Shown in pieces: positions 9,597 to 10,926 of a DNA stretch of 18,332 bases. The stretch's first letter is position 1. Each line of letters starts with the position of its first letter. This stretch comes from Acidobacteriota bacterium. Its GTDB lineage: Bacteria > Acidobacteriota > Terriglobia > Terriglobales > Acidobacteriaceae. A program made the position numbers and the translations under genes. The notes under the pieces are model-generated. The model had not been told where the DNA came from and did not search any database. It was given only the letters and a program-made list of their open reading frames with translations. The DNA is taken from positions 1 to 18,332 of the forward strand of contig JAEZPW010000356.1 of the NCBI GenBank assembly GCA_023441255.1, in the 5' to 3' direction.

Positions 9597-10637
9597 ATGA
9601 GCCAAACATCTTGCGGTTGCAGCTCCGCCACATGCCAGATCTCGCCTGCACCGGTCGGAACCGAGCCGATCGCCGGAACATTAGACACCAGAGCCTCCTG
9701 GCGCGACGTGCTAGGCGGCTGGAAAGCTCGCTGGGGCATCGGGCGCATGCGCTATCAAGTTCCGGCGGGGCTGTACCGGGTCGGTCAGCCGAACGCTGAT
9801 TCGCCGGTTCTTGTCACGGCCAACTACAAACTGACGGTCGACAAAGTCCGAAAAGAACTGGGTGGCTTGAACACCTGGCTTCTGGTCCTCGAAACAAAGG
9901 GTGTGAACGTGTGGTGTGCCGCCGGTAAAGGGACATTCGGCACCGACGAACTGGTTCGCCGCATCCGGGCTGTCAATCTGAAAGACATCGTCAGGCACCG
10001 CAAACTTGTGTTGCCGCAACTTGGCGCAACTGGCGTGGCGGCACATAAGGTGAAACGCGCGACCGGGTTCTCCGTTCATTACGGACCTGTCCGGGCACGC
10101 GACATCCAGGAGTACCTGGCAGCAGGAATGAAGGCCACCGTAGCCATGCGGCGCGTCACGTTCACCTGGAAAGAGCGCATCGTGCTGACCCCAGTCGAGA
10201 TTGTTGGCGGCATGAAATGGGCGCTCGTAGCTGCGGCTGTGCTCGCCATCCTCGACGTCATTCGCCATCATCATCTCACCCTGCATCTCGCCATCGACAT
10301 TGTGCCCTTTGTCGCTGCTGTTCTTACTGGCGGAGTATTGGTCCCGTTGTTTCTTCCTTTGCTGCCGTTCAGGGCATTTGCTCTGAAGGGAGCCGTCGCG
10401 GGAATCATGCTGGCCATTGCCTTGCTGTTGTTGCTGCCGATGGGAGGCCTCACCGAGGCCGCTGGAGTGGTACTTATCACCCTGGCCATAACTTCCTACA
10501 TGGCCATGATGTTCACTGGCTCGACGACGTTCACAACACTCGCCGGGGCCAAACTCGAAGTCCATCACGCCTTGCGTCCAATACTGATCTCCGCAGGGAC
10601 GGGAGCCGTACTTCGCGTAGCTGCAGCATTCGTCTAG
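9597..10637 (+). CDS. hgcA: mercury methylation corrinoid protein HgcA
   Basis: Cap-helix signature GVNVWCAAGKGTFGT (NVWCAAGK codons 9906-9929; Cys codon 9915-9917). An N-terminal soluble corrinoid-binding-like domain is followed by about five hydrophobic helices (WALVAAAVLAILDVI ... ILISAGTGAVLRVAAAF). hgcB follows directly. The start is set at ATG 9597 (AGAAGG SD 7 nt upstream); the track start at 9534 would overlap orf60. Confidence 0.85.
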   Translation: MSQTSCGCSSATCQISPAPVGTEPIAGTLDTRASWRDVLGGWKARWGIGRMRYQVPAGLYRVGQPNADSPVLVTANYKLTVDKVRKELGGLNTWLLVLETKGVNVWCAAGKGTFGTDELVRRIRAVNLKDIVRHRKLVLPQLGATGVAAHKVKRATGFSVHYGPVRARDIQEYLAAGMKATVAMRRVTFTWKERIVLTPVEIVGGMKWALVAAAVLAILDVIRHHHLTLHLAIDIVPFVAAVLTGGVLVPLFLPLLPFRAFALKGAVAGIMLAIALLLLLPMGGLTEAAGVVLITLAITSYMAMMFTGSTTFTTLAGAKLEVHHALRPILISAGTGAVLRVAAAFV

Positions 10638-10650
10638 AGAGGGGACAATC

Positions 10651-10926
10651 ATGCGCTATCTACTGAATGGTCACTCGCTCGTTCTCGACGCGGCACTTTG
10701 CAGCGGTTGCGGCCGATGCGAGGAGGTCTGCCCACATGCAGTGTTCTCTATCGTGAATCGCAAAGCCGTGATTGCCAAGCGAGAGAACTGCATGGAGTGC
10801 GGGGCGTGTCGGATGAACTGTCCCGCCAATGCTATCGAAGTATCGGCCGGCGTCGGCTGCGCCGCAGCCATCATCAACAGCATGCGTGGCAAAAACAATG
10901 GATGCGTGAGCTGCGATTGCGGGTAA
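10651..10926 (+). CDS. hgcB: mercury methylation ferredoxin HgcB (2x[4Fe-4S])
   Basis: 91 aa with two CX2CX2CX3CP motifs: CSGCGRCEEVCP and CMECGACRMNCP (CMECGAC is the HgcB-type signature). It also has a conserved extra Cys in GVGCAAAII and a C-terminal Cys cluster, GCVSCDCG. A GAGGGG SD lies upstream, and the gene starts 13 nt after hgcA. Confidence 0.85.
   Translation: MRYLLNGHSLVLDAALCSGCGRCEEVCPHAVFSIVNRKAVIAKRENCMECGACRMNCPANAIEVSAGVGCAAAIINSMRGKNNGCVSCDCG

Follow-up and report, generated by a model that had tools for sequence, protein, structure and literature searches.

The locus examined here lies on an 18,332-nucleotide stretch of contig JAEZPW010000356.1 (positions 1-18,332), the whole of which is referred to as the window, and raises the question of whether the two adjacent genes at 9597-10926 are a genuine mercury methylation pair, hgcA-hgcB, which kind of bacterium carries them and what controls their expression. 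An earlier interpretation, made from the DNA letters without database searches (the sequence-only reading), had described the pair as complete and its host as Acidobacteriota-like. The comparisons described below indicate that this is probably a genuine HgcA plus HgcB mercury methylation system on a genome fragment of an uncultured member of the Acidobacteriota, most likely transcribed as a small cysteine-rich gene-hgcA-hgcB unit under the control of ArsR and arsenite, with the small protein as a putative soft-metal binder.

The hgcA gene (9597..10637, plus strand; ATG at 9597 to TAG at 10637) encodes a corrinoid protein of 346 aa, in which an N-terminal cobalamin-binding domain is joined to a C-terminal region of five membrane helices. 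Its cap-helix motif is NVWCAAGK, and the cap-helix cysteine, Cys107, is encoded by TGT at 9915-9917; the sequence-only reading had placed both genes, the motif and this codon correctly to the base. A longer hgcA reading frame starting from a TTG at 9534 was considered and found no support in the gene calls on identical contigs. The curated NCBIfam equivalog models for the two proteins, HgcA_corrinoid (NF040863) and HgcB_ferredoxin (NF040864), provided the profile check that had been proposed earlier, and both cut-offs were exceeded (416 vs 275 and 102 vs 99 bits), with matches well outside what chance would give. HgcA matched NF040863 over profile positions 4-324 of 325 (E 9e-125, 416.1 bits). 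In contrast, the model for fused HgcAB-like paralogs (NF043039) gave 214.8 bits, 70 bits short of its cut-off of 285, and HgcA and HgcB are two separate open reading frames (ORFs) with a 13-nt gap between them, unlike the fused paralogs. The model for the large subunit of the corrinoid iron-sulfur protein (CFeSP; acetyl-CoA synthase gamma subunit, NF003195) gave 71.6 bits, 234 bits short of its cut-off of 306, with a match confined to the last 124 profile positions, and HgcA does not qualify as a full-length CFeSP. The only Pfam domains detected on the pair were a CdhD-type cobalamin domain and 4Fe-4S domains.

A sequence search of the PDB with HgcA retrieved CFeSP large subunits only, over residues 53-177. 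In the alignment with 4djd_C, the W-C of HgcA corresponds to L-T of CFeSP, placing a cysteine at the position of the cap-helix threonine. Cysteine in place of this threonine is the substitution that defines HgcA with respect to CFeSP. Hydropathy analysis identified five hydrophobic stretches in residues 200-346, the approximate number of C-terminal transmembrane helices expected of HgcA, and the AlphaFold model built from 45 relatives (mean predicted local distance difference test score, pLDDT, 77) has a Rossmann-like alpha/beta domain and, after it, five long helices in residues 191-345, which bears out the multi-transmembrane domain noticed earlier. When the model was compared with a PDB library using Foldseek, the top match was the HgcAB model of Pseudodesulfovibrio mercurii ND132, 9a0b_A (E 3e-20, 41% identity), followed by CFeSP structures, which matched with a root-mean-square deviation of ~2 Å over 124 residues. 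Among the 45 relatives, 69 alignment columns are invariant, Cys107 included, and all catalytic residues known for mercury methylation are retained in HgcA. At least 8000 candidate homologues were detected at E<=1e-20. When the cobalamin domains were placed in a neighbour-joining tree with the CFeSP fragment as root, HgcA nested in the clade that contains every Acidobacteriota-labelled sequence, apart from Desulfobacterota, Bacillota, Geobacter, KSB1 and others. Grouping with non-methylating paralogs, grouping with CFeSP and misalignment of the cap-helix cysteine had been named beforehand as outcomes that would overturn the call, and the tree, the models and the alignment produced none of them. 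The HgcA N-terminus (residues 1-15, 9597-9640) is itself cysteine-rich (SCGCSSATC), Cys6 being invariant and Cys8 nearly so in the acidobacterial clade; comparable CCC/CGC motifs are present in many lineages and missing from several Deltaproteobacteria, and AlphaFold confidence falls below 50 at this motif.

The hgcB gene (10651..10926, plus strand; ATG at 10651 to TAA at 10926) encodes a 91-aa 2x[4Fe-4S] ferredoxin with an extra cysteine, Cys70. The two CX2CX2CX3CP motifs, CSGCGRCEEVCP and CMECGACRMNCP (C17-C27P and C47-C57P), the second with CMECGAC, and Cys70 in GVGCAAAI are all present as originally described, and both cluster motifs and Cys70 are kept in all HgcB proteins compared. The match to NF040864 (E 1e-29, 102 bits, cut-off 99) covers profile positions 1-85 of 93 and is narrow because the HgcB tail is short: it ends in CVSCDCG, with Cys85, Cys88 and Cys90, and a terminal Cys-Cys pair is absent. 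In 16 other lineages, HgcB usually ends with CxC, a spacer and a terminal CC, and every member of the acidobacterial clade stops at CxC-G/R (SCDCG, SCECR or SCSCG). The ND132 study PMC7305189 reports that at least one C-terminal cysteine (Cys94/Cys95) is needed and that tail length varies; three C-terminal cysteines are present in the window HgcB. Since the short tail is conserved throughout the clade it does not reflect decay, and the alignments identify it as a clade trait within known variation and no defect. With the curated models, the cap-helix cysteine alignment and the fold match to 9a0b_A all agreeing with the earlier claim of a complete pair, 9597-10926 is very probably a genuine unfused hgcAB pair in an acidobacterium.

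The assignment of the host to the Acidobacteriota is well supported at the phylum level by the nearest named relatives of two unlinked genes, as had been proposed. An identical HgcA is encoded on three contigs in public metagenome data, ENA k141_12351 (31 kb), LEMO22-1_SAMN17279184 scaffold_134 (34 kb) and one from a Logan assembly of SRR13400965. The nearest genome-resolved HgcA is 75% identical and comes from an uncultured Acidobacteriota metagenome-assembled genome (MAG; locus L001 in our numbering of related loci). Named relatives at 61-66% identity, among the matches listed, are assigned to Bryobacterales, Bryobacteraceae and Acidobacteria, and all the named near ones are acidobacterial; NCBI already names such HgcA proteins in Bryobacterales MAGs. 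A glycogen-debranching-type enzyme, encoded at 14693-16738 and thus 4 kb downstream, is most similar among named proteins to those from Vicinamibacterales (80%), Acidoferrales (73%), Bryobacteraceae (70%) and Acidoferrum (68%), with two probably mis-binned labels at 70% (Phycisphaerales and Gammaproteobacteria).

Back-to-back with hgcAB is a compact minus-strand arsR-acr3-arsC operon. Together with the small cysteine-rich gene described below, it had been overlooked in the sequence-only reading, whose account of the flanks as Acidobacteriota-like was otherwise sound. The arsR gene (8845..9258, minus strand; start codon set by gene calls and alignment) encodes a 137-aa ArsR/SmtB metalloregulator (NF033788, 83.7 bits vs a cut-off of 55; Pfam HTH_5) whose DNA-binding region contains a CVC and whose C-terminus has a CC pair; these are motifs of the arsenite type and predicted As(III) ligands. 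One nucleotide after the arsR stop begins acr3 (7752..8843, minus strand; start inferred from L001 and L019), which encodes a 363-aa arsenite efflux permease (TIGR00832, 466 bits vs a cut-off of 282.8). It is followed by arsC (7321..7743, minus strand), encoding a 140-aa arsenate reductase of the low-molecular-weight phosphatase type; the TIGR02691 score of 154 bits is below the cut-off of 174.3, Pfam LMWPc gave 72 bits, and the CTGNSCRS loop and distal Cys pair are present.

The 114-bp spacer between arsR and the small gene contains the only two sigma-70-like promoter matches in 9100-11200, where 0.8 would be expected. The plus-strand promoter consists of TTGACA (9300-9305), an 18-nt spacer and TATAGT ending at 9329 (11/12), and the minus-strand promoter of TTGTCA (9306-9301), a 16-nt spacer and TATCAT ending at 9279 (10/12, with a TG extension); their -35 boxes overlap to form a divergent promoter region at 9279-9329. 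The sigma-70 consensus scan, applied to a phylum whose promoters are poorly known, detected no promoter-like site ahead of hgcA, including the 41-nt gap between the small gene and hgcA, and a scan of 9100-11200 detected no terminator-like site. An imperfect dyad at 9289-9312, ACATATTCGCC-TT-GACAAATATAT (block ACACATATTCGCCTTGACAAATATAT), is centred on the -35 box and is a candidate ArsR operator. This promoter/dyad block is conserved in all arsR-linked loci examined, whichever gene follows, and in L001 and L033, which have no small gene, it immediately precedes the ribosome-binding site of hgcA. The leader of the small gene contains a perfect palindrome, TATTCGC-N4-GCGAATA (9341-9358), which follows the -10 box and precedes the ribosome-binding site, AAGGAG. 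The window has one copy of this palindrome vs 0.11 expected by chance, and the sequence is exact in 11/11 small-gene loci; L001 has a one-mismatch copy before hgcA and L033 a remnant only. The palindrome could equally be a second candidate ArsR site or an RNA hairpin. With regard to a structure that sequesters the start codon, the single-sequence RNA fold gave a z of -4.4, and in the alignment fold the invariant inner hairpin alone was retained, covariation being almost absent.

The small cysteine-rich gene (9373..9555, plus strand) encodes 60 aa (MENTNQSNAIVSRFFKTIGLIMADVWNTAQTCGFCCGIRFDREKRGDDMPTPSSCCGVRV), ends 41 nt before hgcA in the same orientation, and is also predicted by gene callers. 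Its product has two invariant CCG motifs and the C-terminus MPTPSSCCGVRV. Orthologous ORFs occupy the same position in L022, L023 and L027, the HgcA proteins of L022 and L023 being 84-85% identical to that of the window; the N-termini of the small proteins have diverged, and the last 30 codons show almost only synonymous changes. This pattern marks the ORF as a genuine gene that evolves under purifying selection, and it belongs to an unnamed family. A word-indexed search recovered 9 members, and an exhaustive profile search of 1.84 billion representatives recovered ~22 clusters (50% identity) plus two repeat-derived false positives. Members are 50-63 aa long (L022:90-275, L023:1661-1846, L027:920-1105, L024:736-915, L026:923-1108, L029:883-1134 and L030:4980-5144). 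In their alignment, C35-C36-G37, C55-C56-G57 and R59 are invariant, and the shared C-terminus MPT(P/A)SSCCGVR(V/M/F/L) is preceded by a predicted amphipathic helix. In L029, an ATA takes the place of the ATG at 958-960 in an otherwise intact ORF, either through a sequencing error or as a rare start codon. The protein has no Pfam or NCBIfam family at E<=10, including the bacterial metallothioneins (SmtA/BmtA), and no PDB sequence relative at E<=1. Its AlphaFold model shows one N-terminal helix and a Cys-rich half of low confidence.

Gene order around the family members varies. The order acr3<-arsR<-|->small->hgcA->hgcB is shared by the window, L023 and L027/L028, and in L026 an ArsM-like methyltransferase gene precedes small->hgcA. 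In L024/L025, the small gene faces arsR-acr3 and is followed by a DUF1161 gene instead of hgcA. On the 40-kb metagenome contig L030, it heads a co-directional small-arsR-arsM-acr3-arsC operon (4980-7926, plus strand) with no hgcAB; the ArsM-like protein of L030 also has an SSCCG motif. Two distant family members are in unrelated gene contexts. We had considered the small gene as an hgc-specific accessory, which L024/L025 and L030 rule out, arsR being present there with no hgcA downstream. Because the small gene is found with this type of ArsR whether or not hgcAB is present, it belongs to the ars module and not to hgcAB. The idea that it stands in for the missing HgcB tail was also set aside: the tail is short in all clade members, whether they have the small gene or not, so that comparing presence with absence cannot discriminate and lends no support to tail replacement. 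A role for the small protein as a thiol carrier or buffer for a metal or metalloid is suggested by its invariant cysteines, as a tentative assignment whose chances we place somewhat below even.

The divergent arsR-hgcAB layout is also found in L001, L021, L023, L027, L033 and L034, at HgcA identities as low as 68%. What stands between the ArsR-type promoter and hgcA varies: this slot holds the small Cys-Cys gene in the window, L022, L023, L026 and L027, and is empty in L001 and L033. In L034 (76% HgcA), a gene encoding a 285-aa protein of the phosphoenolpyruvate (PEP)-mutase/isocitrate-lyase family occupies the slot (2465-3322, plus strand) and overlaps the hgcA start, and L021 has a 75-aa remnant of a PEP-mutase-family gene there (5754-5981). 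In L035 (3229-4008) and L036 (3231-4014), hgcA is preceded by a MarR-family gene that overlaps its start and by a conserved 71-72-aa ORF (MTQADKAEVTWGDRDRK...); McDaniel 2020 may have meant this MarR gene by its "putative transcriptional regulator".

How might these components work together? By homology, HgcA would bind cobalamin with Cys107 as the axial ligand (Cys-on), would be methylated by S-adenosylmethionine (SAM) and would pass the methyl group to thiol-held Hg(II); the two [4Fe-4S] clusters of HgcB would return cobalt to Co(I), and Cys70 and the tail cysteines would handle the metal. The anatomy of the locus suggests that transcription begins near 9336 and continues across the small gene to hgcAB, because hgcAB has no recognisable promoter of its own and lies downstream of the small gene with its shared promoter. 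ArsR would repress at the conserved dyads, and arsenite would derepress. With its two vicinal Cys pairs, the small protein may bind a soft metal or metalloid such as As(III) or Hg(II) and act as a buffer or carrier. For co-transcription of hgcAB with the small gene under ArsR control, we put the chances at about even. A more elaborate scheme, in which mercury methylation is switched by arsenite and the small protein, as a mobile thiol carrier, uses its invariant Cys-Cys pairs to deliver Hg(II) or an arsenical to HgcAB, making up in trans for the vicinal-Cys tail missing from HgcB of this clade, is a long shot.

Several observations weigh against the proposed ArsR-controlled acidobacterial methylation system. 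Co-transcription and ArsR binding are deduced from consensus scans and conservation, and non-sigma-70 promoters fall outside those scans. L020 (83% HgcA) has hgcAB without ars genes, and the Bryobacterales-type L035 and L036 (66% HgcA) have a co-directional MarR gene instead of ars, so the ars link is lineage-specific. The small-protein model is poor (pLDDT 60), and metal binding is a prediction. HgcB passes its curated cut-off only narrowly, by 3 bits, and lacks the terminal Cys-Cys of the ND132 type. According to McDaniel 2020 (PMC7438021), no acidobacterial hgcA transcripts were detected in permafrost, and our literature searches found no experimentally verified acidobacterial methylator. 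The loci without ars, or with MarR, favour an explanation in which hgcAB has its own unrecognised promoter and the adjacency of the ars operon and small gene has no regulatory meaning, as does the fact that the 41-nt gap was scanned for the sigma-70 consensus only. We consider this explanation unlikely, because the promoter/dyad block of L001 and L033 leads directly to the hgcA ribosome-binding site with no gene between, no terminator-like site follows the small gene, and the arsR-hgcAB arrangement is retained as HgcA diverges. It is somewhat less likely still that arsenic or another soft metalloid is the physiological substrate of HgcAB, as part of an ars regulon, with mercury methylation as a side reaction. 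The position of hgcAB behind an ArsR-type promoter would fit such a role, as would the ArsM-like methyltransferase or PEP-mutase-like gene in the same unit in relatives and the greater As(V) sensitivity reported for ND132 without hgcAB (10.1101/2022.10.17.512643). However, an action of HgcAB on arsenic is hypothetical, all tested carriers of unfused hgcAB produce methylmercury according to PMC10087281, and the catalytic residues known for mercury methylation are all retained here.

The remaining alternatives concern the identity of the pair and of its host. That the pair is a non-methylating relative, whether a fragment of CFeSP, a paralog of the HgcAB-like type or a copy in decay, might be argued from the 3-bit margin and shortened tail of HgcB and from the undetected transcripts of McDaniel 2020, and is extremely improbable: HgcA is 141 bits over its own cut-off and well under those for the fused paralog and CFeSP, the ORFs are separate and intact, the 69 invariant columns include Cys107, and the short tail is clade-wide, with three C-terminal cysteines where one is enough (PMC7305189). 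We also regard as very improbable, though less so, that the contig is not acidobacterial, either through mis-binned MAG labels or through horizontal transfer of the whole block. The HgcA protein and the debranching enzyme both have Acidobacteriota as best named relatives, the GC content is even (0.57 in the ars-hgcAB block vs 0.56-0.60 in the flanks), and no tRNA-derived direct repeat flanks the block; such an origin would be in keeping with the movement of hgcAB between phyla (PMC7438021), with the few debranching-enzyme matches labelled otherwise, and with the lack of any rRNA or ribosomal protein gene in the 18-kb window.

Outside the ars-hgcAB block, a tRNA-Met gene (CAT; 7152-7228, plus strand) lies 93 nt from the end of arsC and is preceded at 6976-7044 by a 17-nt unit, CCCGATGGCGAGATGGC, repeated four to five times in tandem, and by a hairpin with a T-run. 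Insertion of the block as a genomic island at this tRNA was considered and rejected, there being no tRNA-derived direct repeat and no break in GC content; the far side of the block likewise showed no att-like repeat. The left end of the window truncates a gene for a bacterial alpha-2-macroglobulin (1-5092 region, minus strand), which has 1544 aa on the full contig; next to it come a DUF1175/MagC gene (4013-5092) and an S41 C-terminal processing peptidase gene (5190-6446). Between a hybrid histidine kinase gene (11102-12841, minus strand) and a cyclase-family gene (13703-14308, plus strand, called on an identical contig), the ~860-bp region 12842-13702 is free of called genes and gave no Rfam match at the gathering threshold. 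The sequence-only reading had pointed out that the flanks contain no Wood-Ljungdahl or sulfate-reduction genes. Family searches likewise found no Wood-Ljungdahl or dsr genes in the flanks, within an 18-kb window that cannot speak for the whole genome, but the observation carries little weight: the methyl donor of HgcAB is SAM (PMC11588087), and the missing Wood-Ljungdahl genes are therefore uninformative.

Much of this picture has precedents. Acidobacteria positive for hgcA, and acr3, arsC and arsR next to hgcAB, are described in McDaniel 2020 (PMC7438021), and Acidobacteriota were among the predominant putative methylators in Lake Manganika (PMC10087281); the novelty of acidobacterial hgcA had been overstated in the sequence-only reading, since hgcA-positive Acidobacteriota and ars genes beside hgcAB have been known since 2020 and there are thousands of homologues, to which the window adds a further intact example. 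The statement in that reading that verified acidobacterial methylators are lacking agrees with PMC10087281, in which validated methylators as of 2022 are limited to Desulfobacterota, Firmicutes and Euryarchaeota, and no later case to the contrary came up in our searches. The small Cys-Cys family, the promoter/dyad block and the 5' palindrome are modestly interesting and worth following up; they go without mention in the retrieved text of McDaniel 2020, Peterson 2025 and the other cited literature. The small Cys-Cys family offers a testable candidate for a new component of the ars module. Acidobacteriota are among the most abundant bacteria of soils, peat and sediments. A functional acidobacterial hgcAB, if confirmed, would bear on where methylmercury forms, and if arsenite does release hgcAB through ArsR, arsenic co-contamination could modulate the methylmercury output of a very common soil phylum. 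Such wiring would be a second, independently arranged link between hgcAB and arsenic beyond the Desulfovibrionaceae.

The closest characterized system is HgcA/HgcB of P. mercurii ND132 (Parks 2013; 9a0b; Zheng 2024), with which the window shares the adjacent gene pair, the NVWCAAGK motif, the cobalamin domain with five membrane helices and a dicluster ferredoxin with an extra conserved cysteine. The window differs in that HgcB ends in CVSCDCG without a terminal Cys-Cys and in that HgcA has an N-terminal CGC motif. An ArsR-like regulator that responds to arsenic has been shown experimentally to control hgcAB in ND132 (10.1101/2022.10.17.512643), where it is upstream, in the same direction and co-transcribed; in the window, arsR is divergent and heads a full arsR-acr3-arsC operon. 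We infer that the proposed ArsR control of the window hgcAB would parallel ND132 regulation with a different gene order. The same gene set is found in environmental-MAG hgcAB loci flanked by arsR/acr3/arsC (McDaniel 2020 Fig. 6; Peterson 2025 Fig. 4), in which an ArsR-type regulator is likewise linked to hgcA expression, and the presence of arsR was associated with lower hgcA transcription in a lake (PMC11984097). The CFeSP large subunit (AcsC/CdhE; 4djd, 2ycl) has a homologous cobalamin domain (~2 Å over 124 residues, 25-29% identity), but HgcA lacks its N-terminal [4Fe-4S] domain and TIM barrel, has Cys for Thr and has gained a membrane domain. In the smtB-smtA locus of Synechococcus, an ArsR/SmtB repressor gene is divergent from that of a small Cys-rich metallothionein with nine cysteines. 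Both there and in the window, an ArsR-family gene is back-to-back with a Cys-rich gene of ~60 aa across a common promoter with dyad symmetry, which in the window is a candidate operator. The small protein of the window has no sequence similarity to SmtA and only two Cys-Cys pairs, and the window ArsR has arsenite-type Cys motifs and is followed by acr3-arsC. In genetic layout, smtB-smtA would nonetheless appear to be the nearest analogy to the arsR-small gene arrangement that precedes hgcAB here.

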